Shown piece after piece: positions 1,345 through 34,512 of a stretch of DNA of 64,000 nucleotides (its first letter is position 1; each line of letters starts with the position of its first letter). The notes under the pieces are model-generated. The model saw nothing but the letters and a program-made list of their open reading frames with translations. It had not been told where the DNA came from and did not search any database. The stretch comes from a virus. Location: positions 96,001 to 160,000 of IMG/VR virus record IMGVR_UViG_3300049893_001984. One strand, 5' to 3'. The position numbers and the translations under genes were made by a program.

Positions 1345-1821
1345 CTACGGGGTTATGCTCTTACGAATAGTTTCAAGGCCGGTTGCAGCCCCATCACAAA
1401 ACGCAGCAACTAGCTCAGCCGAGCTACTGCCTTTTACCTTCCAGTCTGGATGCTTTTCAAACAGACGATCAAGTTCAGACAGCAGTAGTTTGGCTGCCTT
1501 CTTTGATGCAACCTTGTACAACTTCTGGTCATCTCGGAAAGCCTTATCAAGGGCAGCTTCAACTTCTGGGAGAATGACCGTGAAGCCTTCGTCTGTCCAT
1601 CCGTGAAGGTTCTCACGCAGTTTGTCTGTAACAATTCGGATACCGGAGACAACATCCGGAGATGGCTTGTCTATGGCCACGTAGAGAGCCATCGCTGCAC
1701 GTCCAGCAAGCTCCGCCATGTCCTTTTTGCTCTCGGCTGACGTAGTGTTGTTGCCACAGCTTGTGCACGTCAAAGCAGCGAGAGCAACCAAATAAACACT
1801 GATGGCCTTTAGGTTATGCAT
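1345..1821 (-). CDS. Putative lipoprotein
   Basis: Hydrophobic N-terminus followed by Cys (ALAALTCTSCG); start reassigned to MHNLK at 1821. Confidence 0.55.
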   Translation of the reverse strand: MHNLKAISVYLVALAALTCTSCGNNTTSAESKKDMAELAGRAAMALYVAIDKPSPDVVSGIRIVTDKLRENLHGWTDEGFTVILPEVEAALDKAFRDDQKLYKVASKKAAKLLLSELDRLFEKHPDWKVKGSSSAELVAAFCDGAATGLETIRKSITP

Positions 1822-2164
1822 CTTTTGTCTTTCCTTTTCTTCTTTCACCAGCCCTCAGCCTGAAAAGACCTAACGAGATCTCATCCGAAGGGAAGAAGGC
1901 CCTGAAACAGTCGTACTCCTTTATAAGCCAAGGATCCACATATATGACCTGTGGAGTTTTGGTTAAAGGTTTACTTAGCTGAACCGACCTCCCTGCTTTA
2001 CTGCAAAGAAGTTCGAAACAGTTTGAACAGTAGAACGTGAACCTGGTTACGTCGCCTCTGTAACTAAGCTGAATCACAGGTTCATTGTTTTCGGAGGGTA
2101 ACATACACAAGCGACAGCTTGCCGGTAAGTCCAGCAGCTCTGCTGTGAATGTAACCATTTCCAT
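1814..2164 (-). CDS. Hypothetical protein with two CxxC motifs
   Basis: CRLC and CSNC; tightly packed in minus-strand run. Confidence 0.5.
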   Translation of the reverse strand: MEMVTFTAELLDLPASCRLCMLPSENNEPVIQLSYRGDVTRFTFYCSNCFELLCSKAGRSVQLSKPLTKTPQVIYVDPWLIKEYDCFRAFFPSDEISLGLFRLRAGERRKGKTKDA

Positions 2165-2527
2165 TTATCTGTTATCGCCTTCGCTCTTTATCACATTGCG
2201 AATTTGACGATCTTTTAGCTTTTCCAAGTTTATCTTAGCCACGTCACCAAGCGTGAAACCGAGACGCAAAGCAAGATCGGCTATATACCATTGAACATCA
2301 CCAAGCTCCTTTATGAGCTCGATCTTCTGTTCTGGTGTATAGTCCTTGATCTCCCGCGCTTCGAAATTACGGTAGTACTTTCCAACCTTCTCCGCAAACT
2401 CACCTGATTCTCCAGCGAGCTTAAGGGTGGAGTACATTATAGACTTGTCTTTATCCGGGTATTGTGCAGTCAAGACTGCCAAAGCCTGGTATTCGTCTAA
2501 TGTCATTTTGTTGGTGAAGTTGCTCAT
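2165..2527 (-). CDS. MazG-like NTP pyrophosphohydrolase
   Basis: LAGESGEFAEKVGK and KELGDVQWYIADLA, NLEKL..R motifs of all-alpha NTP-PPases. Confidence 0.9.
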   Translation of the reverse strand: MSNFTNKMTLDEYQALAVLTAQYPDKDKSIMYSTLKLAGESGEFAEKVGKYYRNFEAREIKDYTPEQKIELIKELGDVQWYIADLALRLGFTLGDVAKINLEKLKDRQIRNVIKSEGDNR

Positions 2528-2718
2528 TGCCTATCCAACTCGGGTGGTATCTCAAGAGACGTTAGTAGATTAACTACCCCTGAGACGTCTTTTATGTTTG
2601 CACGACACGCAATTTGCGTGGCGTCATCGTAATTAAAATTAACTGGAATCCTAGGCCGTAGCCTATCCATCATTAGAACTTCTAGAACTAGTGCTCTGAC
2701 TTCGCGTTCATCCATCAT
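2524..2718 (-). CDS. Hypothetical protein
   Basis: ATGA overlap with MazG-like gene. Confidence 0.5.
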   Translation of the reverse strand: MMDEREVRALVLEVLMMDRLRPRIPVNFNYDDATQIACRANIKDVSGVVNLLTSLEIPPELDRQ

Positions 2719-2773
2719 GGCGGCAGTTTCCAGTTACTGTTACTGTTTTAATTAACCCCCAGCCTCCTCCTTT

Positions 2774-3439
2774 CTAAATGGACCCAGCAGGTTGCTCAGA
2801 CAACCCACGTCTAGCTGAGTCGTTTGTTTTAACACCGTAGCTATACGCCTTGAACTTATATCCATTTTGGCGTACAGCTTCCCCCAACTTTGTATCACCA
2901 CCATTGTGACTAAGCCTGGGGTCAGGCCAGTCAATGGCCCTTAGCACGTCAGTACGTATCCCCCAATAGGATCCTTGCGCAAATGTGACCCCTGGGACAT
3001 TACGTACCTTTTCAGGCGATATGCCTTTGTACCACGACGCTTTCTGTATGAACTCCAGCTCGCCCGGACGCCAAATCCAAAGCCAAGGTTCACCGAAGTA
3101 ATGGAAATCAGCAGACGGCGAAAGCATGTACCGAACACTCAAGAGCCAGTCTGGCTTGACTATGTGAGCATCGTCATCAAACCAAATAACCCATCTTGCC
3201 TGTATGTCTTTTTTGAACATGTTTCGCATGGCAATGTACTTGGGTACATTTTCACTGCTAAAGTGACAGTTAAACCCAAGATTGCCAACCAGTTCAACTG
3301 TTTGACTGCAGACCTGGTTACCCCAGAGATTAACTTCAATATCACTAACGCCACCAACCTGCTTATAGAGGCTAGTCAAGAACCTCTTATGCAGATCGTG
3401 GTAATCACCGTATAGCAGTCCAAATATCGATAAAAACAT
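2774..3439 (-). CDS. GT-A fold glycosyltransferase (GT2-like)
   Basis: WVIWFDDDA (DxD) motif, N-terminal beta-strand/helix pattern, GGDTKLGE late motif. Confidence 0.65.
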   Translation of the reverse strand: MFLSIFGLLYGDYHDLHKRFLTSLYKQVGGVSDIEVNLWGNQVCSQTVELVGNLGFNCHFSSENVPKYIAMRNMFKKDIQARWVIWFDDDAHIVKPDWLLSVRYMLSPSADFHYFGEPWLWIWRPGELEFIQKASWYKGISPEKVRNVPGVTFAQGSYWGIRTDVLRAIDWPDPRLSHNGGDTKLGEAVRQNGYKFKAYSYGVKTNDSARRGLSEQPAGSI

Positions 3440-9114: not shown

Positions 9115-11088
9115 TTATTTAATTGGGCACTGTCCAGAAGAACACTCTAGTGAGCTCTGGAGCTGGCTCATGCCGTCGTCCTTTAGAGAGTTTATTGGGC
9201 GAGTCTTTGCCACCATGCTCTCATACTGCTCCTTCGTTATCTCCTCGTAAGGAGCCTGAACAAACCCATGTCCAGAGTGCAGCAGGAAAGAAACGGTTTT
9301 TATTCCGTCGTCGTAATTCTTGGAAAGCCAATCCTTTATGGCATCCAGCTCTTCCAGCTTGTAGTAAACAGTAACAGAAACTGAATTGTCCGCCCAATAC
9401 GCCTGCATGTGTTTAGTCTTTTCCAACTGCTCAATCGCTGTCATGTCCTTGGCCAGGATTGCCTTGCTATTAGGTTTGCAGGGGAACGAGACAACCATGC
9501 TGTCGTAGTTGATAGTACCGTCCAGGTTCTGTTTAGGTTCAACGTGGAACCCGTGCTCACGACACACTTCGATCAGCGGATCATTAGTGGCCATCATGAT
9601 CCGCCTAATATAGTACTGTGCAAAGGCCGGATGGATTCCAGGAGTCACACCTGCCAAGAGGGACAGGGTACCAGATGGCTTGACCGTTGTCAGTTTGATG
9701 GACTTACTAACACCGATCAGCTTGGAGTAATTTTCATCTTCCAACTCAATGCGGCGGTAGACACGATCGAGAACTTCCTTGGTAGTAAGTTCAGGAGCCT
9801 CGAGAACACCAGTGACGCCAATTCCCAGACGGTGGTTACGACTAACAACCTCGTTTGTCTTCTCGTGAATAAACGGAAGACAGCTTATTGTCTTAACAGC
9901 CTTCAGCATCAGAGCCGCAACATCTTCAAATTCTTCAATGGAACGGATGTTGGGCAAGAACAGCTCAGCCAAATTGCAGCTCTCATACGGTTCCAACGGA
10001 ACTTCACCGCAAGGGTTTGTACCTATAACACGTGGGTCAGGCCGGTAGTTTGGGCCGTCAACCAGACGTCCGTACTTCCGACAGTTGTTAAGGTTGACAA
10101 GGCCATAAGGCTCGCCCTGGCCATTGTAGCCAGACCAGAACGTGTTTGTAAGGCGTTTGATAATGTTACAGATCACGCTGTTGTTGCTCATTGCGCGCCA
10201 TTTAGGGATGGATCCCTTATCCCAGCGCTTGGCGTCCAAGTACTGTTCGTCAGAGGCGTCGCCAAGCGCAATCTGCGCTGAACGGCGTACATTCCCCGCG
10301 ACAACAATGCTGCCAATAATGTTCATGATGTCCAGGCAGTCTATAGGCCGGAGCTTCTTACCAACCCGGCTACGCAGTACCGTGCAAATGCGGTCTATGC
10401 CTTCACACAGTTCCTCAGGACCAGATGCCGTGCCACCAAATCTCTTAATAGGCACACCTTTTCCACGCACGCAGGTCGTGGAATAAGTAAACCCTTTTCC
10501 AGTAAAGAAGAACGCCGTCAATGTGCGACGAAGAAGCTCAACCCAACCTTCCCGGTTATCCGGGATGATAAAGTTGACGTCCTTCTCATCCTTACGCACA
10601 ATTTTCACATTGTACTTAACCTTAGGCATTTCATACACGTACTCTGCCTGGAGGTTATAACCAAGGCCACCACCGAGCATCAGCTCATCAAACGTAAAGC
10701 AGAAAGGCTCAATGGGGTCATTAACAACACATGCCCAACAGTTCTGAAGACTGTCGCCACCAAGGGCGTCAACAGTCTCTGTCCCCAACTGCCACAGCGC
10801 CCTACCTGAAAACGAGCATCGAAGATTGAAGACGTGGTCGTACATCCGCTCCGCTTCATCCTTCGTAAGTTTACACCCTATGTGGATAATACCGTTAACA
10901 CACCGCTCAACGGTCTCGAACCACTCCTCTGTTGTGTCCTTGGAAACACGGCGAGCGTAAGTACGCTTGTACGTAATATAGCCCACAGGGCCCCAAGGCG
11001 GCATCTTTGTACGGTAGGACTCAACAAACGCAGGTTCGAGTTCGTCCACGTAAAGTCCGGTGTTCTTTGTTTCTGTTGTCTTCAGCAT
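9115..11088 (-). CDS. nrdJ: Class II (adenosylcobalamin-dependent) ribonucleotide reductase, monomeric RTPR-like
   Basis: RTYAR, GRALW, LQNC, GNVRRSA, GTNPCGE, CNLAE, TTVKPSGTLS, C-terminal CSSGQCPIK; start at MLKTT behind AGGAG. Confidence 0.95.
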   Translation of the reverse strand: MLKTTETKNTGLYVDELEPAFVESYRTKMPPWGPVGYITYKRTYARRVSKDTTEEWFETVERCVNGIIHIGCKLTKDEAERMYDHVFNLRCSFSGRALWQLGTETVDALGGDSLQNCWACVVNDPIEPFCFTFDELMLGGGLGYNLQAEYVYEMPKVKYNVKIVRKDEKDVNFIIPDNREGWVELLRRTLTAFFFTGKGFTYSTTCVRGKGVPIKRFGGTASGPEELCEGIDRICTVLRSRVGKKLRPIDCLDIMNIIGSIVVAGNVRRSAQIALGDASDEQYLDAKRWDKGSIPKWRAMSNNSVICNIIKRLTNTFWSGYNGQGEPYGLVNLNNCRKYGRLVDGPNYRPDPRVIGTNPCGEVPLEPYESCNLAELFLPNIRSIEEFEDVAALMLKAVKTISCLPFIHEKTNEVVSRNHRLGIGVTGVLEAPELTTKEVLDRVYRRIELEDENYSKLIGVSKSIKLTTVKPSGTLSLLAGVTPGIHPAFAQYYIRRIMMATNDPLIEVCREHGFHVEPKQNLDGTINYDSMVVSFPCKPNSKAILAKDMTAIEQLEKTKHMQAYWADNSVSVTVYYKLEELDAIKDWLSKNYDDGIKTVSFLLHSGHGFVQAPYEEITKEQYESMVAKTRPINSLKDDGMSQLQSSLECSSGQCPIK

Positions 11089-11283
11089 GACAGTTCTCCT
11101 GAACCCAATCAACTATTTCGATCGACATCTCACCAACTCCGATGGAGAGATTAACCGAATCGCAAACAAAAACAACTGCGAGTTGAAGGAATTCAGTTTC
11201 CTTTGTTTTAAAAATTAATCTTTGAATATTGAACCAATGATTACCGTCTTTATATTAGAGGTAACCCCTTGGAGGATAAGGAA

Positions 11284-12658: not shown

Positions 12659-13333
12659 CTAAGCAGCCACCTTTAGGTCATTCTGGTGCTCAATGGCCAC
12701 TTTTACAATTTCCTCTTCCATCACCTTTAGCATCAACAACTGTGCGGCAAACACATCAAAGTTTGGCATGAAACCACCATTTACAAACTTAGGTGGGTGG
12801 GCGCACAGCCGTCTTACTGCCACAAGTTGCGGTACCCCTTCAGTAGATAACCTCTCCGCCATCTGGTAGACGTTGGCTATCGCTGTCGTGCATTTAATCC
12901 GGTAAATCTTTCCGGATGGGGCCCTAACTGTTACAAACTTAGTTCTTTCGAACTCCTCTCTCTGGTCTCGGGTTAACAAACCTAAGAACAGTTCTTTTGC
13001 TTTTTTATCTGCTGCTTCCGCAGATATCTTCTCTATGGCAGCTATCTTAGGGTCTACTACGACTGGTTTGTCCCACGCTGAAGACGTACAGGAGGTTGTT
13101 GCATAAACCGAGTGCCAGTACAAACCGTCCCTGCATTTAAGTTTAACCAATGTGGCGTCCGGGTAGTATAGCGTAGACGTACCTACTGTGCTGATTGAAT
13201 ACGTATCGCTATAATATGTTTCATACGTGTTAAACAGAGGCGTAGTGGCAGTGGTCGGTGCTACTTTTTCCTCTGGGGCAATTAACGTCGCTGAGTCTGT
13301 CAAGAGGGTTCGACCTGCAACCGCTAACTCCAT
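12659..13333 (-). CDS. Conserved hypothetical protein with LCAHP motif
   Basis: A.ELFLGLLT..Q...F, YRI, NV, LCAHP, D..AAQLLML pattern; coupled to the upstream GG-ending gene. Confidence 0.7.
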   Translation of the reverse strand: MELAVAGRTLLTDSATLIAPEEKVAPTTATTPLFNTYETYYSDTYSISTVGTSTLYYPDATLVKLKCRDGLYWHSVYATTSCTSSAWDKPVVVDPKIAAIEKISAEAADKKAKELFLGLLTRDQREEFERTKFVTVRAPSGKIYRIKCTTAIANVYQMAERLSTEGVPQLVAVRRLCAHPPKFVNGGFMPNFDVFAAQLLMLKVMEEEIVKVAIEHQNDLKVAA

Positions 13334-13334
13334 G

Positions 13335-13691
13335 CTATCCTCCTACTGGTGGTTTTGTGAAGATCAGAGTCTCAGCTCCTGGATCAAATGAATCGACACG
13401 CTCGCCTTGTTCCCCGTTCCTACCCACAGAAAATGCGATGTGGCCTTCGGCTAAAAGCTTGTTGAACAGGCTCCTTGCCTTTTCCACCGCTATCTCATCT
13501 CCGGAATCCCACACGTGGCGTGTGTCACCTGTGCGGTCCAACACCCTGAAAAGCCTTGACGTTGGTTTAGATAAAGCCTCGGCGAGAGCCTTTTCGGCCT
13601 CCGCCTCTTCTTCTACATTACCAGCTTCGTAATAAAACACTTTGTTAGTAACTAGATCCCGGTACATTGCCGGCTTGACACCTTCTTCCAT
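13335..13691 (-). CDS. Small protein with C-terminal PPVGG
   Basis: VLDRTGDT..W, FDP.AE, ends TKPPVGG; SD AGGAG. Confidence 0.7.
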   Translation of the reverse strand: MEEGVKPAMYRDLVTNKVFYYEAGNVEEEAEAEKALAEALSKPTSRLFRVLDRTGDTRHVWDSGDEIAVEKARSLFNKLLAEGHIAFSVGRNGEQGERVDSFDPGAETLIFTKPPVGG

Positions 13692-14079
13692 CGTCCTCTC
13701 CTTTGCTTAAGTCCTTAAGAAAAATCTTTCTAAGCTTTTTAGCAACTTCAACCGCTTTACTGCACTGCTCCAGGTCAAACATACCTATATGACACATAGA
13801 TACGTCAACACCTAACTCAGAAGCTAGCTTATGGTAAGCCTCCGAACGGGTCAGGGCGCCTGACTTCCATAACGGATCAAATTCATTGTGAGCTTCAATC
13901 CTAGCCTTACGCACGTCAGCGTCGGCAGGAGTTCCTCTCGGATTCTTTGTTACCTGATTAGCCGCCTGTGTGAATGTGCAGTTCGGCCAGTTTGGGCAAC
14001 CAAAGAAATAACCGTACCTTCTTCTCTTCTGGAGTAGAAACGGCACGGCGCATCGTGGGCAACAAGGTGTTCTGCTCAC
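13645..14079 (-). CDS. DUF3268-like zinc-finger protein
   Basis: CPRC...GCPNWPNC, GTPAD, R..AH..FDPLW, AY..LA..LG, CHIGMFD. Confidence 0.8.
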   Translation of the reverse strand: MSRTPCCPRCAVPFLLQKRRRYGYFFGCPNWPNCTFTQAANQVTKNPRGTPADADVRKARIEAHNEFDPLWKSGALTRSEAYHKLASELGVDVSMCHIGMFDLEQCSKAVEVAKKLRKIFLKDLSKGEDDGRRCQAGNVPGSSY

Positions 14080-14603: not shown

Positions 14604-14633
14604 AAAAAAAAGCCCCCACCATTAGGTGGGGGC
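14604..14633 (-). terminator. Rho-independent terminator
   Basis: GCCCCCACC-ATTA-GGTGGGGGC followed by 8 T on minus strand. Confidence 0.85.
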
Positions 14634-14641
14634 CAAGTCCT

Positions 14642-15271
14642 CTACTGTGAGTACTGACTCACAGCTATTGCGTCGTTAAAACTACCAGTGGCCTTAGCTG
14701 AACACAGAACAGTTCCGACGTCGGCAAGTGCTTTCTTGATTCCGCAGTCGGTCTGAACGTAATTCATTGCATTCCGGGCTCTAAATCCGTACTGGAGTGC
14801 TTGTTTAACGCTTTCAAGGTCAGCTCCCAGGAATATGAACCCCCAGGAGTACACACTTGTCTGGTGTTCGATCCTCCGTTTGATCTCCTCTTTTGTAAAC
14901 CTCTTAGAGGAGTTCTCCTGTCCGTCTGTCATTACTACAAATACCACCTTATTGGGACGCTCAGACTCAGGGATAGACGAGAAGTATGTACCTCGCATAT
15001 CCATGACATCACCAATAGCATCAAGCAGTGACGTTGATCCGCCGTCAGGGATGTAGAGTTCAGGAGTTATCAACCCCACCTCCTGTGCTGGGCGGTTGAC
15101 AAACACAGGCTCAACGTTAGTGGAAAACAGATACAGGTTCATTACTGTGGGGTAAGGATCCTGTTTTTGCTTCATAATGAACGCATTTACACTTTCTATG
15201 GTGCTATTAGCTGTGGCAGCCATAGAAGCCGACTTGTCCAGCACAATGGTGATGTCCATCTGGTCTTTCAT
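14642..15271 (-). CDS. von Willebrand factor A domain protein
   Basis: MIDAS motif LDKSAS, GSTSLLDAIG, MTDGQENSS, FIFLGA. Confidence 0.9.
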   Translation of the reverse strand: MKDQMDITIVLDKSASMAATANSTIESVNAFIMKQKQDPYPTVMNLYLFSTNVEPVFVNRPAQEVGLITPELYIPDGGSTSLLDAIGDVMDMRGTYFSSIPESERPNKVVFVVMTDGQENSSKRFTKEEIKRRIEHQTSVYSWGFIFLGADLESVKQALQYGFRARNAMNYVQTDCGIKKALADVGTVLCSAKATGSFNDAIAVSQYSQ

Positions 15272-15888
15272 TTTTGATCAGCCCTAGTGTATTTTGAAAG
15301 GAAAGATTTTACGGGCAAAGACTTTGCCCTTACTCTCTCTCCCTCGTCTGTTATCGGTTTGAAGACGACAGAGTACTCCCCTGTTAACACAGTAACAGCT
15401 AGTACATTGACTTTGTTTCGGGGAGCTCTGTTTTCTCGCCATACCTCGCAGGCAGATACGCGTGTATGTTCTTCTTGTTCTTCCTTGTCTGCTTCTTTCT
15501 TATTTGTAAAAAGATCGAGCTTGCGTGGAATCGGGTCAATGTTGTCCCAAACATACTCAACTAAGTCTTTATTGTTAAAGCAGAGTGAGACACTTAATAC
15601 CCTGATCATCGATCTTCCAAACTGTAATGCACTGTGGTCAACAATTAGGCGTGCAATCCCCATTGCGACCTCCATGTCTTCTGAAAAGATATAGCCAGGG
15701 TCAACGTCAAGACTTGAAAGTAGTCTGTCGATGGTTTTCTTATCCAAGTGAAATGCGTACGGTGCGTCTGCGGCATATGTCACTTTGATAACCCTGCTGG
15801 CGTTAATCTTCTCGATCTTTTCTTTGGATCCGTCATTCGCAGCCTTGGCGACAGTAACGGTTCCTGCGTAACTCGTGACAAGTTTCAA
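15268..15888 (-). CDS. Hypothetical protein
   Basis: TTG start behind AAAGGAGG; ATGA overlap with VWA gene. Confidence 0.65.
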   Translation of the reverse strand: MKLVTSYAGTVTVAKAANDGSKEKIEKINASRVIKVTYAADAPYAFHLDKKTIDRLLSSLDVDPGYIFSEDMEVAMGIARLIVDHSALQFGRSMIRVLSVSLCFNNKDLVEYVWDNIDPIPRKLDLFTNKKEADKEEQEEHTRVSACEVWRENRAPRNKVNVLAVTVLTGEYSVVFKPITDEGERVRAKSLPVKSFLSKYTRADQK

Positions 15889-15914
15889 CTATACCTCCTT
15901 TCTAAGTATGTTTA

Positions 15915-16085
15915 GTGGTGTCCCGTGGATTAACATGGCCGACACCAGGTAGCCTTTCCCACGCCCACGCCCTCATCGGTCGTGGGCTTGTACGGCTCTC
16001 ACGGTTTGCCGCCTGATCTAAGGGGGTCCGTATTCAGTTTTACGCTGAGTAGGGTATCAGCCAATGAAACGGTAGATCAGAATTT
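15915..16085 (-). ncRNA. Candidate structured RNA / leader
   Basis: Intergenic; nested stems CTGATCTA/TAGATCAG, GCCCACG/CGTGGGC, GGTGTC/GACACC. Confidence 0.3.
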
Positions 16086-16094
16086 TAAGCTGGG

Positions 16095-17582
16095 TTAGCT
16101 CCGGACTTCTTCGCCAGAGTAAGTCAAGGTTTCGCTCTTGTTGACAATTTCACCCTCGACGATGGGTCGGGGGCTTTCATTTGCTGACTTAAGGGCAGAC
16201 GATGCTTCGATGATGCCCTGTCCGACCATGTCGCCAATAGTGCGGCCGATCTGGTTTGCCACCATCGACCACACTATTTCGGGCGATTTTCTCAGGTTTG
16301 ATGGAGCCTGCCCGATCACTCCCTTGGCAGCGATCATAAGATCGTTCTCGTTCAAAGAGAGCTTGTCGCTCTCGTGCTTCATACGACGTATGGCCGAAAG
16401 CTTCGCACGCTCCACAACTTCGCGGATACGCGCTGGGATTGACTGTGCGCTGGTCAACAGCTTGGCCACGTTATCCAGCTGCACAGCGTTGTCGATCAGT
16501 CCACGCCCGTACTTTACCAGCAGGCGCTTTGTGGTTGCTTCGTTTGGAACGTCGAAATGGATGATGGCATCCATACGACCTTCACGAAGCATGGCCGGGT
16601 TGATGTTCTCAACGTGGTTCGTGGTCAGGATGGTCATAAGTTCGACCCCCTTGAGCTCGATACCGTCGATCGTGTTGAGTACGTCGTTCACGTCTCCGTC
16701 TCTGGTCGTACCCACGTACTGGTCGACGTCTTCGGCGAAGACAATCGAAGGGGCGTACTGCTTGGCGAACAGCAGTGCCTCAGCAAGGCCTGTCACCTTG
16801 CTCAAATAAATAAACGTCCACCCGTTTTCGGTGCCCACCTTGGCAACCACGGATCCAAGCAGCGTCTTGCCGGTTCCATACCGGCCAGAAGCAAGGACGC
16901 CTCTTTTCAGAGGAATCCCCAACTTCCGACACATATTGCTGCTGCGCAGGGGGGTCAGCACAGCCGAGTCAACAAGGTCCATCGTGTCCTTGTTCAGCAT
17001 GAGGTCCTCGGCCCGGATCTTCGTGGCGTCCACGAAGGAGGGGACTTCTTTCGTCGGATCAAATGAGTCTGGATCTGCCCCGTCGAAGTCCACCTTGATA
17101 GCCTTACCTTTGTAAAGAGACTCCTCCAAAAGGATCTTTCGGATGAGTGTGGAGATTTTCAGGACTTCGTCCTGGAACTTGCGCTGAACTTGGCCGCACA
17201 GTGAGAACACCCACCGGCCCTTGTCGAACACGGCCCCAGCGGAAAGCCAGCCGCCTTCGAACTTGGCCACCTCAAGCCGCCCCCACGGAACGGAGATAAC
17301 CTTGCCCAGGTGGTCCACTGGCACCTGGAGCATGTGCGGTGGGCGATTTCCGAAGAACGAGGGGGTAGGCACCATGTCCACCCAGCGGTAGATGGTGGAC
17401 AAGGCCTTATGGAGAGCGTATGCACCCTCAATGGGGAAGCACTCCATTTTCTCGTTTATGTCGATGATTCTGGCCTGATCCTCATCGTGCCGCTTGATAG
17501 CGCGTATAGCATCAGCCGAAGACATCCCTTCGGGAAGTATGATTTGATCCCCCTGACGCTTGACCTGGTGTTCGTCGGACAT
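16095..17582 (-). CDS. Classic-clade AAA+ ATPase (single AAA module)
   Basis: KRGVL, Walker A GRYGTGKT, Walker B IVFAEDVD, SRH TTNHVENINPAMLREGRMD. Confidence 0.9.
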   Translation of the reverse strand: MSDEHQVKRQGDQIILPEGMSSADAIRAIKRHDEDQARIIDINEKMECFPIEGAYALHKALSTIYRWVDMVPTPSFFGNRPPHMLQVPVDHLGKVISVPWGRLEVAKFEGGWLSAGAVFDKGRWVFSLCGQVQRKFQDEVLKISTLIRKILLEESLYKGKAIKVDFDGADPDSFDPTKEVPSFVDATKIRAEDLMLNKDTMDLVDSAVLTPLRSSNMCRKLGIPLKRGVLASGRYGTGKTLLGSVVAKVGTENGWTFIYLSKVTGLAEALLFAKQYAPSIVFAEDVDQYVGTTRDGDVNDVLNTIDGIELKGVELMTILTTNHVENINPAMLREGRMDAIIHFDVPNEATTKRLLVKYGRGLIDNAVQLDNVAKLLTSAQSIPARIREVVERAKLSAIRRMKHESDKLSLNENDLMIAAKGVIGQAPSNLRKSPEIVWSMVANQIGRTIGDMVGQGIIEASSALKSANESPRPIVEGEIVNKSETLTYSGEEVRS

Positions 17583-30518: not shown

Positions 30519-31136
30519 TTATTTGGAAGGTACAACCGGCTTAATGTCTGGCGAGAACTTGCCAAATACGTGTTTTTCTATGTACGCAGAGAATAACTTT
30601 TCGATATTTAATTCATCACTATCATTTATCCAGCTGTTCGCTTTCGCGCGCCTACGAAAATCACGGACAAATGGCGCGCAGTTTGTATTACATATCCATA
30701 GCCCCCGTTCATCCCTGGCCAGCTTGCATAATCTGCAATTCTCATTCCTGGCGTTTTGCATAAGAGTTTTCAGGTTCTCAGGATTATATTTATTCCTATT
30801 TTTCGTAAACTCTGGAAAGCACTCAAGATAAAAACCAATAGCTATCTTTTGCAACCTTGGGCTGAGGCCAACGCGAGAAAACATCTGGTTGGAGACCAGC
30901 GTTATATCTGTGTCAAACCCACGAAAGTCAAAGAATTCTCTGAAGGACATGAGTTCTTTAACCAGACGTATCGTCACTTCTAAGAATTGAACCCGTGCCT
31001 CTTCGAAAGCCGTTGACACGGATTCTTCTGTAACCACATTTATTTCTGGGACATGTGGTATTTGAATATCTTTTGTGGGTCTTGGGGTTACCATAGAAGA
31101 TTCTACGCTAACCATGCACGCTTCAGTGTACCTCAT
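30519..31136 (-). CDS. Hypothetical protein with Cys cluster, last gene of Ubl cassette
   Basis: ATGA overlap with E1; CRLC...ICNTNC. Confidence 0.7.
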   Translation of the reverse strand: MRYTEACMVSVESSMVTPRPTKDIQIPHVPEINVVTEESVSTAFEEARVQFLEVTIRLVKELMSFREFFDFRGFDTDITLVSNQMFSRVGLSPRLQKIAIGFYLECFPEFTKNRNKYNPENLKTLMQNARNENCRLCKLARDERGLWICNTNCAPFVRDFRRRAKANSWINDSDELNIEKLFSAYIEKHVFGKFSPDIKPVVPSK

Positions 31137-31993
31137 TGGCTACTTTCCTTCTTCTTTGCCCGTTTCCTTGCTTTTCTTACTACGTGGGCGTGTTGAGGTA
31201 GCTTATCGGCGCTGCTGTCCGTAGCAGAACTTACATCGGGGATAGTAGGGATATGCAACGCAGAGACCGCTGTTTGATCCTCCGCGCCTTTAGGTTTATC
31301 AACGTCATACACAACGGCTTTTCCTACCTCGAGGTTAAAGAAAGCCTCCTGCGGTAGGTTTTCTTTGTCCTCCGTTACCCAAAGCCGGTGAAACAAGGAG
31401 AAGGCCATAGTAGCGGCCATGAGATTTGTTACCAGGAGCTGTGTAACACCCTGGTTTATCTCGTCCTCGCAGCCCTTTCCTGTGCGATCACCCTCAGTGG
31501 CCGTCAGTATCTCGGGATGGCGTTCGAGCACAGTCTGGGTCAAGTTTTTACCGTCAACCCGGATCTGAACACAAACGTCACCATCGATCAGCTCGTTGCC
31601 TGCTGAGATCATGATACCATTTTCAAGCTTGGACAAGGCCTGTGAAATGGTACGACGGGCCGGGTGGTTATCCACACAGGAGATAACCACGCAGTTCTCG
31701 GTGACGGCCCTTCGAACGCTGTCTTCAACCACCCACTCCGGGTAGGCGGTTATACGGAGGGAGGGATACTCCCCCGCCATATCGGTTACCAGGGCTTCGG
31801 CTTTGTTAACGCCAATGCTTGGAAACCGAAAGCGCTGACGGTTACGGTTTCCTTCTGTGTACACGTCCCGGTCCCACAGTGAGATCCGGCCTTGAAAGTC
31901 TTTGGCACACAGAAACTGGCAGAGCGGGGGGATGAGGTGTGACCCTATCCCCCCGCAGCCAACTATGACAACCTCGCTGACTTTAAACAGCAC
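31133..31993 (-). CDS. ThiF/E1-like ubiquitin-activating enzyme
   Basis: VGCGGIGS, DRDVY...NRNRQ, NKAEA, SCVDNHPAR, SAGNE, putative catalytic Cys in GKGCED, Q...N..AA. Confidence 0.93.
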   Translation of the reverse strand: MLFKVSEVVIVGCGGIGSHLIPPLCQFLCAKDFQGRISLWDRDVYTEGNRNRQRFRFPSIGVNKAEALVTDMAGEYPSLRITAYPEWVVEDSVRRAVTENCVVISCVDNHPARRTISQALSKLENGIMISAGNELIDGDVCVQIRVDGKNLTQTVLERHPEILTATEGDRTGKGCEDEINQGVTQLLVTNLMAATMAFSLFHRLWVTEDKENLPQEAFFNLEVGKAVVYDVDKPKGAEDQTAVSALHIPTIPDVSSATDSSADKLPQHAHVVRKARKRAKKKESSQ

Positions 31994-33262: not shown

Positions 33263-33793
33263 CTACTGCGGGTCTGCGCCGCTGACAGTGCCTGCAACTT
33301 CGGCTGTTGCTTCGGCTGTTGTTGCCGCTGTTTCTGTTGATGCTTGAACGGGTTCCGTGACAGACGGGGCAGATGCTGGGGTGATTGCTGGCAGCGTCTC
33401 AAGTTGTGCAAGTTTGAGTGCTTCAGCTTCAGTCTCCTGCCTTTCAAGTATCGCTCTCTGTTCATTCAATTCCCTCAGCAACTGGCTTCTTCTTGCAGAA
33501 GCCTGCCTTGCCTTCGTCTTGTCGTAGTGTTCTGTCCGTGACAAAATTCTTTGTAGCTGGGCATACGTTCCAGATTCGTCAATTTGTGACTCTTTTATGC
33601 AAAACCTCAACCTAATAGAATGTACTGCGTGTGCCACTAGGCTTTGCATTGGGGTGCCAACAAAGTTTTCCAAATCCTCGATTGGGCACACTAAAAAAGG
33701 ATGTAAAATATCCACGATGCTCAGTTTTTTCTGGGAAGGGATCGCGCTTAGTGAATTTTTGAGTTTTATAAATTCTTCTGACTCACGGGTCAT
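33263..33793 (-). CDS. Hypothetical coiled-coil protein inside Ubl cassette
   Basis: ATGA overlap with E2 stop (start MTRES); helical core plus A/T/E-rich tail. Confidence 0.7.
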   Translation of the reverse strand: MTRESEEFIKLKNSLSAIPSQKKLSIVDILHPFLVCPIEDLENFVGTPMQSLVAHAVHSIRLRFCIKESQIDESGTYAQLQRILSRTEHYDKTKARQASARRSQLLRELNEQRAILERQETEAEALKLAQLETLPAITPASAPSVTEPVQASTETAATTAEATAEVAGTVSGADPQ

Positions 33794-34512
33794 GAATTCT
33801 CCTCTCTGCCTAGTATGGCGCTGCAAAGACCGTCTAAGGTCTTTAGCTTGTGTCTCTTAAGTGATAACTTCTTGTAAAACTCCTTGTCGTTCTGGGTCTT
33901 GGCGTTCCAATCCTCTAGATTTAAGATGGCGCCACCGCTGTCTTCTTCGTACCGGACCTCCAGGTCGTCATTCCACGTTGAATTATAGATGAGCTCCTGC
34001 GCCAACGTGTTAATGCGAACAACGCGGGGAAGTGAGGCGTCGACTCCTACCTCGCCAGTGCAAAAGTGCCCGTGCCCTTGCTCATGTACATTGGGCAAGC
34101 ACAACGTATGGATCTGTGCACCAGTTCCCAGCAGGCACACATCATCCTTTACGCCTACTGCGTACACACTGGAGGGTATTTCTTCGGAGAAGTGAAAGAG
34201 CCAAAGTGTCCATCCGATGGACAGTTTGTAGTTGTATGACTTGTTCCGGTCCAGGCCAGGACCGCCACGTTTGTAATGCATACGTACAGGTAGTATCTGC
34301 GGCGGTTTCTGAATTACGTACAGCGATGATGGTCTACCTCCGCGCAGACCCGTCATGTACCGAACACAGTCCTTTGGCAAAGGTCCAGTGTCCGTACCGC
34401 GACCCTCTTGTGTTTGCTTCAAGTACTCCGTCAGGTTCACGTCGTGCATTATCATACGACGTATCTGGAGTACATGGTCACCGCGTATTTCAATCACATC
34501 CTCTTCTTCCAT
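33790..34512 (-). CDS. Prokaryotic E2-like conjugating enzyme (Prok-E2 family D / PRTRC protein B-like)
   Basis: GPLPKDC, LPNVHEQGHGHFCTG (catalytic Cys), STWNDDL, DWNAKT; SD GGAGG. Confidence 0.75.
   Translation of the reverse strand: MEEEDVIEIRGDHVLQIRRMIMHDVNLTEYLKQTQEGRGTDTGPLPKDCVRYMTGLRGGRPSSLYVIQKPPQILPVRMHYKRGGPGLDRNKSYNYKLSIGWTLWLFHFSEEIPSSVYAVGVKDDVCLLGTGAQIHTLCLPNVHEQGHGHFCTGEVGVDASLPRVVRINTLAQELIYNSTWNDDLEVRYEEDSGGAILNLEDWNAKTQNDKEFYKKLSLKRHKLKTLDGLCSAILGREENS

Follow-up and report, generated by a model that had tools for sequence, protein, structure and literature searches.

The gene pair described here lies on the minus strand of a 64,000-nucleotide window that forms part of a 192-kb uncultured phage, whose probable source sample is a freshwater sediment metagenome. 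Among sequencing runs this sample alone contained the sequence, and no RNA run was listed. The first gene (13335..13691, minus; ATG at 13689-13691, stop TAG at 13335-13337) encodes a small protein of 118 aa and is preceded by a ribosome-binding site, AAGGAGAGG (13695..13703, minus), in which AAGGAG stands 6 nt 5' of the ATG. The second gene (12659..13333, minus) encodes a protein of 224 aa, which we call the partner, and begins 1 nt past the stop of the small gene. A first-pass annotation of this DNA, made without database searches, had described a 118-aa protein ending in TKPPVGG and, one base after its stop, a protein with YRI, NV, LCAHP and AAQLLML motifs. The open reading frames are as described: the small protein ends TKPPVGG-stop, and the partner carries KIYRIK, IANVY, RLCAHPP and FDVFAAQLLML.

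On the minus strand the junction reads GTA GGA GGA TAG C ATG, in which the GGA GGA codons of the terminal Gly117-Gly118 (13338..13343, minus) double, in this phage, as the Shine-Dalgarno sequence AGGAGGA of the partner. The partner consists of an N-terminal region (residues ~1-94; 13052..13333, minus), modelled with pLDDT below 50 over residues 1-81, and a conserved C-terminal domain (residues 95-216; 12686..13051, minus), the predicted fold of which resembles E2, RWD and UEV domains in weak matches. The LCAHP motif of this domain contains Cys177, a residue invariant in the family; its codon (12803..12805, minus) is GCA on the plus strand and TGC on the minus strand.

An intrinsic-terminator-like hairpin (14611..14634, minus), with a 10-bp stem of which 8 pairs are GC and a following T run, closes an upstream vWA/AAA unit. 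Four co-oriented genes then run from 14579 down to 12659, the pair last, and no further minus-strand terminator was predicted in this interval. The upstream unit (14642-17582, minus) comprises a vWA-domain protein (14642-15271), an unnamed 206-aa protein and an AAA ATPase (16095-17582, minus) that matches phrog_10440 with an E-value of 1e-103. Upstream of the small gene, a gene at 13645-14079 (minus) encodes a DUF3268/Top1-type zinc-ribbon protein (PF11672, E-value 1.4e-25), and its final 47 nt also cover, in a different frame, the beginning of the small gene. Beyond the pair, an ORF of 665 aa at 9115-11112 (minus) looks, on inspection by eye, like a ribonucleotide reductase of the B12-dependent class II type.

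Search, linkage and distribution of the pair

Neither protein gave a meaningful match in Pfam, PHROGs, NCBIfam or PADLOC, the two profiles gave low-complexity chance matches only when run against PDB sequences, and the literature that we searched does not describe the pair. Single-sequence word-index searches retrieved only the query proteins themselves; the families surfaced through exhaustive search and through a profile of the neighbouring gene. The pair is undescribed, and both of its families are large and unnamed. The partner family has 174 representatives at an E-value of 0.001 or lower in the exhaustive search, all of which match the C-terminal domain (residues ~100-216). The small family has 632 clusters at the same E-value limit (<=0.001), none with a Pfam domain, as collected by a profile of six members. 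Small GG-ended proteins had come to light upstream of two partner homologues, and three IMG/VR loci yielded three more.

The two genes travel together. Of 58 loci with 900 nt or more of downstream sequence, 56 have the partner after the small gene on the same strand, and the pair is usually translationally coupled, with the first possible partner start falling within -14 to +4 nt of the small-gene stop in 51 of 67 pairs. Where the gap between the pair genes is larger, another small gene is inserted. At about 11 loci this insert belongs to a third family, whose members are 140-160 aa long, always start with Met-Cys-Leu-Ser and lie between the pair genes (L057:1197-1634, L066:3423-3839, L087:3236-3691 and L048:913-1377; also L027, L039, L040, L047, L058, L062 and L086). 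Both apparent exceptions to the linkage belong to this subgroup. Like the pair, the third family has no match in Pfam, PHROGs, PADLOC or NCBIfam.

The pair is widespread in uncultured phages. Among 50,697 GenBank phage records, relatives occur in only two uncultured phages, Rctr197k and the 595-kb LR756511, and in no cultured phage. In Rctr197k the same two genes adjoin, and its small protein, the nearest GenBank relative of ours, ends in PG, not GG; this protein also has an insertion before its last strand. Some 1.2-3 kb upstream of the Rctr197k pair (KX853510; L001:3333-3587, 1692-3095) lie an annotated CRISPR repeat region and a transposase-like gene. Just upstream of the pair in LR756511 is a small Cys-rich ORF (L129:2467-2832) without a Pfam match. 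One locus places the pair among early recombination genes.

In cellular genomes the family was found in 2 of 401 Planctomycetota genomes and at one locus in a scan of species genomes, and both families are essentially viral. The very divergent Planctomycetota pair (G057, L133:1507-2490) consists of a 75-aa protein ending in PPVVGG, a spacing of 9 nt and a 248-aa partner, in which the Cys and the Pro-x-x-Asp at the start of the helix are both retained.

The Gly-Gly terminus and the partner cysteine

Gly-Gly is the exact C-terminal end of 119 of the 120 members listed from the 632 clusters, the remaining one ending in AG. The fetched loci, with 88 complete small genes, give the same picture: 80 end in GG, three in AG, one in PG, two in GGI and one in GG followed by 13 residues, and one is truncated. 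Chance alone would give well under 1% of proteins a GG end, far below the observed frequency.

The overlap of the glycine codons with the ribosome-binding site offers a trivial explanation, namely that GG is an artefact of an overlapping Shine-Dalgarno sequence and that the pairing is functionless. The first-pass annotation had itself raised the caveat that this overlap could explain the tail. Its observation stands, as the window's GGA GGA codons do form the partner's AGGAGGA; its suggested consequence does not. In the 80 GG-ending genes the commonest codon pair is GGCGGC (15), followed by GGCGGG (11), GGTGGC (10), GGAGGC (10), GGAGGG (7) and GGAGGA (6), and GGAGGN, usable as a GGAGG site, occurs in only 26 of the 80. 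The tail is also kept where another gene splits the pair (L002, L129 and the third-gene loci). Because the glycine codons vary across these 80 genes, we conclude that Gly-Gly is selected as protein and is not a Shine-Dalgarno by-product. A Shine-Dalgarno origin of GG is excluded by the codon counts, and we give the idea of a functionless pairing practically no credence.

A few members extend past the glycines. The proteins of L013 and L016 end in GGI, that of L036 continues for 13 residues after GG, and that of L088 has GG and then more residues running off the contig end; in this they are like Ubl precursors that need trimming. No protease gene was identified near these four members.

The conserved core of the small family covers ~70 residues (about 45-118); the 44 residues before it are specific to each lineage. 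Invariant positions are G55, D56, W61, V69, A72, F76, F102, D103, A106 and G118.

Conservation of the partner is sparse and centres on the cysteine. In the alignment of 149 partner members, whose mean column identity is 7%, Cys177 is the sole fully invariant column (149/149); N154, P190 and Q198 are conserved in 99% of members, D193 in 98%, A213 in 97%, and H179 and P180 in 80%. The Cys is also present in 68 of 68 partners identified independently, by their position downstream of small genes. Together with the counts for the terminal GG and for linkage, these figures confirm the statement of the first-pass annotation that the pair recurs in phages with its GG tail and its Cys kept. A papain-like protease reading of the partner was rejected, as no His is invariant.

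Upstream of the conserved domain, the N-regions of the partners are between 0 and 469 residues long (median 55), with disorder predicted, and no known domain was found fused to them. Their composition is 16.7% Thr, 8.2% Ser, 5.5% Trp and 0.8% Lys, against 4.3% Lys in the C-domain. Several N-regions (P0027, P0033, P0035, P0043, P0052 and P0087) contain two to four W-x-x-W repeats; the window copy is rich in Thr, Ser and Tyr.

Predicted folds and a predicted complex

The AF2 model of the small protein has a mean pLDDT of 66, rising to 76-86 over residues 61-110, and its core elements follow the order beta-beta-alpha-beta-beta-beta, which is the beta-grasp order. Among the best 50 structural matches (Foldseek, VIA-align) to this pLDDT-66 model, no ubiquitin-like or beta-grasp chain was present; a beta-grasp fold is suggested by the order of elements in the model and is not shown.

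The first-pass annotation had likened the tail to the ends of MoaD, ThiS and SAMP proteins. The family shares with the ThiS/MoaD/Urm1/SAMP group (PF02597) its small size, a free C-terminal Gly-Gly after a hydrophobic strand and a Pro-rich linker, the beta-beta-alpha-beta-beta-beta order and a tightly coupled partner gene; it differs in having no adjacent E1 and in that the beta-grasp was not recovered. At the level of sequence the likeness is confined to the tail. When the small family was aligned with 30 ThiS/MoaD sequences by hhalign, the global probability was 1%, whereas a local alignment of the last 13 columns reached P = 0.005 (probability 7%). Pfam ThiS and ubiquitin profiles matched neither the window protein nor any of 42 members at E-values up to 1, and the nearest named ESM Atlas cluster to the small protein is ThiS, with a weak score of 0.76. 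The tail, by sequence, may be called ThiS/MoaD-like; membership of that family is not shown. To our knowledge, the G-D-T near the first hairpin and the F-D-P before the last strand of the small family are not features of ThiS or MoaD.

The partner C-domain is modelled with pLDDT above 90 in the order alpha-alpha-beta4-(Cys loop)-alpha-alpha. Its four-strand meander ends at Cys177, which sits at the end of the strand 168-177 and before the helix 191-204. For this domain two aligners ranked RWD, E2, UEV, FANCL, Atg10, Cap2 and CdnG-E2 chains first or nearly so; Foldseek returned no significant match, its list consisting mostly of E2 enzymes and RWD-like kinetochore domains. We tentatively regard the modelled domain as E2/RWD-like, with scores below the level that would prove kinship. 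What it has in common with E2/UBC, RWD and UEV domains is an alpha - four-strand meander - alpha arrangement with the invariant Cys after strand 4, then a conserved Pro. The next helix lies ~14 residues past the Cys, a spacing that we take to equal that between Cys85 and helix 2 of UbcH5. The HPN motif of classical E2 enzymes is missing; N154 opens strand 3 and lies 23 residues N-terminal to the Cys. A His two residues past the Cys, present in 80% of members, recalls the bacterial E2-like group with a conserved His C-terminal to its Cys (Iyer, Burroughs and Aravind 2006, PMC1779556). No rhodanese, PP-loop, MoaE-like or peptidase fold appeared among the structural matches of the partner. The partner profile gave no match by hhalign to the window's own E2-like protein (33790-34512), and no Prok-E2_B (PF14461) sequences were found in 151 genomes.

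In profile comparison the partner shows similarity to DUF7737 (PF24879), with P = 5e-4 and a probability of 31% over 64 columns in hhalign, against a template of only 6 sequences. Partner residues Y144, N154, C177, P190 and D193 align to the conserved Y, N, C, P and D of that domain, and DUF7737 is on this evidence probably a cellular relative of the partner. Neither the window partner nor 47 family members match at the DUF7737 Pfam threshold. DUF7737 differs in being the C-terminal domain of bacterial DUF4132 proteins, in open frames of 223-1657 aa, mostly above 500, and its Cys is kept in 3 of 6 copies sampled. We found no paper on DUF7737.

A co-fold of partner residues 92-224 with residues 44-118 of the small protein gave an ipSAE of 0.81, compared with 0.00 for the best of 3 controls. 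Of 80 solved complexes 58 reach the mark for this score, as do 2 of 110 mismatched pairs; the counts hold only roughly here, where custom alignments were used. Agreement between runs is 97% of contacts or higher, and the pLDDT of the partner is 87 or more. The predicted interface comprises ~100 contacts between conserved residues on both sides, for example D193 with the loop 51-56 of the small protein. On the partner it covers 177-181, 184-190 and 192-193 plus the flanking helices, and on the small protein the conserved loop 51-56, residues 87-98 and the tail 110-118. Binding of the two proteins is predicted with confidence in this model, the tail and the Cys loop both lying in the interface. 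As to whether the tail reaches the Cys, which the first-pass annotation had proposed checking by co-folding, the prediction places residues 110-118 and 177-181 in a shared confident interface and does not state a Gly118-Cys177 contact.

Such an interface would also be expected of a stable heterodimer with no transfer chemistry at all, in which an RWD-like partner acts as a non-catalytic binding module, the GG tail is retained solely because threading a narrow pocket takes two residues devoid of side chains, and the Cys is structural or redox-sensing. The complex might then serve as an adaptor or regulator in early infection, possibly against host defence. In favour of this are the RWD domains, themselves non-catalytic, that head the structural matches of the partner, the frequent absence of the Cys from DUF7737 relatives, the want of a linked E1, and the large interface of conserved residues. 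Against this stand the 149/149 retention of the Cys in very divergent sequences and a GG end at ~99%, together the usual signature of carboxylate chemistry, and the rarity with which AG and PG endings are tolerated. We consider a purely non-covalent heterodimer unlikely, while giving it real weight.

A possible modifier with a mini-E2, and its activation

A minimal ubiquitin-like modifier and a mini-E2, with E1 supplied in trans, best fit the evidence as a whole: an invariant free GG, a Cys that never varies in a domain of E2/RWD-like appearance, close coupling of the two genes, and a predicted complex with the tail in a groove. We assign this reading a probability of roughly 40%. The 13-column tail alignment to ThiS/MoaD, the members with residues beyond GG and the Planctomycetota pair also speak for it. 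The E1 being unlinked, the complete 190-kb phage without ThiF, the lack of any Ubl/ThiS sequence match, the absence of beta-grasp proteins from the best 50 structural matches of the small protein, the PG ending in Rctr197k and the Cys in 3 of 6 DUF7737 copies count against this reading. The first-pass annotation had suggested a minimal modifier with a Cys-dependent ligase or transpeptidase, an interpretation that our results partly support. We infer the covalent chemistry, the E1 source, the target and the E2-like fold alike, the fold from weak matches.

As modifier and mini-E2, the two genes would form an obligate two-protein module. The flexible Gly-Gly tail, with its free carboxylate, would lie in a groove of the C-domain beside Cys177. 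An E1-type adenylating enzyme acting in trans, either a host enzyme of the MoeB/ThiF class or a phage ThiF such as that at 31133-31993 of the window, would activate the Gly-Gly; the carboxylate would then be held as a thioester on Cys177 and handed to a target. The variable, Lys-poor, Thr- and Trp-rich N-region of the partner may select that target.

No ThiF or JAB homologue lies within the 3-4 kb flanks of the pair in any of 88 loci. The window's ThiF adjoins a JAB protein, and this E1-JAB cassette is 18 kb from the pair; ThiF is also encoded in Rctr197k and LR756511. A 100%-complete 190-kb phage that carries the pair has no ThiF, from which it follows that the module does not require a phage E1. 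Enzymes of the MoeB/ThiF class are common in the cellular genomes examined, PF00899 being found in 12 of 14 control genomes.

The presence of PF00899 in cellular genomes would serve a sulfur relay, in which a host MoeB/ThiF-type enzyme thiocarboxylates the GG and Cys177 acts as persulfide or acceptor for a thiolation, such as the modification of a nucleic acid or a cofactor. The tail resemblance to ThiS/MoaD over 13 columns and the ThiS cluster of the ESM Atlas point the same way. We nevertheless judge a sulfur relay improbable: the partner has no rhodanese, PP-loop or MoaE-like fold, the small protein falls outside PF02597 by sequence, and among the neighbours of the pair, most of which could not be named, none was recognised as a gene of sulfur metabolism.

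The bacterial Ubl operons Bil, type II CBASS and Bub (PMC11601596) are defence systems of the host, in which an E1 and a protease are always present. The pair resembles Bil (Ubl, E2, JAB and E1), type II CBASS Cap2/Cap3 and Bub in combining a Gly-ended protein with a Cys-bearing E2-like protein in a setting of phage-host conflict, and differs in being phage-encoded, in having two and sometimes three genes, and in the lack of an adjoining E1 or JAB in 88 loci. Conceivably the pair acts against such defences, the GG protein mimicking a substrate of Bil or of type II CBASS Cap2 and the Cys partner intercepting or hydrolysing thioester or isopeptide intermediates. Families that are essentially viral and rare in cellular genomes, and a locus among early recombination genes, are what this would lead one to expect. 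It is nonetheless a long shot, as His179 is only 80% conserved and provides no Cys-His dyad, and there is no peptidase fold, no PADLOC match and no experimental link.

Prokaryotic Ubl conjugation is currently known as host equipment, for sulfur transfer or for anti-phage defence (Bil, CBASS type II and Bub), and always comes with an E1. The pair differs as a widespread two-gene module carried by phages, all of them uncultured. It has both chemical hallmarks of Ubl conjugation, a free GG end and an invariant Cys on an E2/RWD-like domain, and no activating enzyme of its own. Should it conjugate, bacterial viruses would use, and perhaps hijack, ubiquitin-type tagging, and the pair would offer a very small model for the origin of E2-type chemistry as well as a compact tagging tool. 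Should it not, a Gly-Gly tail and an RWD-like pocket would have been reused for plain binding.

A more far-reaching version of the modifier and mini-E2 reading extends to the third gene. The pair could be the smallest Ubl conjugation system so far seen, borrowing a host MoeB/ThiF enzyme or using no E1 and tagging host or phage proteins during infection, with the third-gene product among its targets and the mature N-terminal Cys of that product perhaps linked to the thioester in a ligation-like step. We regard this whole scheme as unlikely. As for the substrate itself, the third-gene product may be one, since a Cys at its mature N-terminus might be able to attack a thioester. Several third-gene proteins end in PGNA or PGNC, and the small proteins of most third-gene loci share the tail LH-x-x-M-[IV]-GG.
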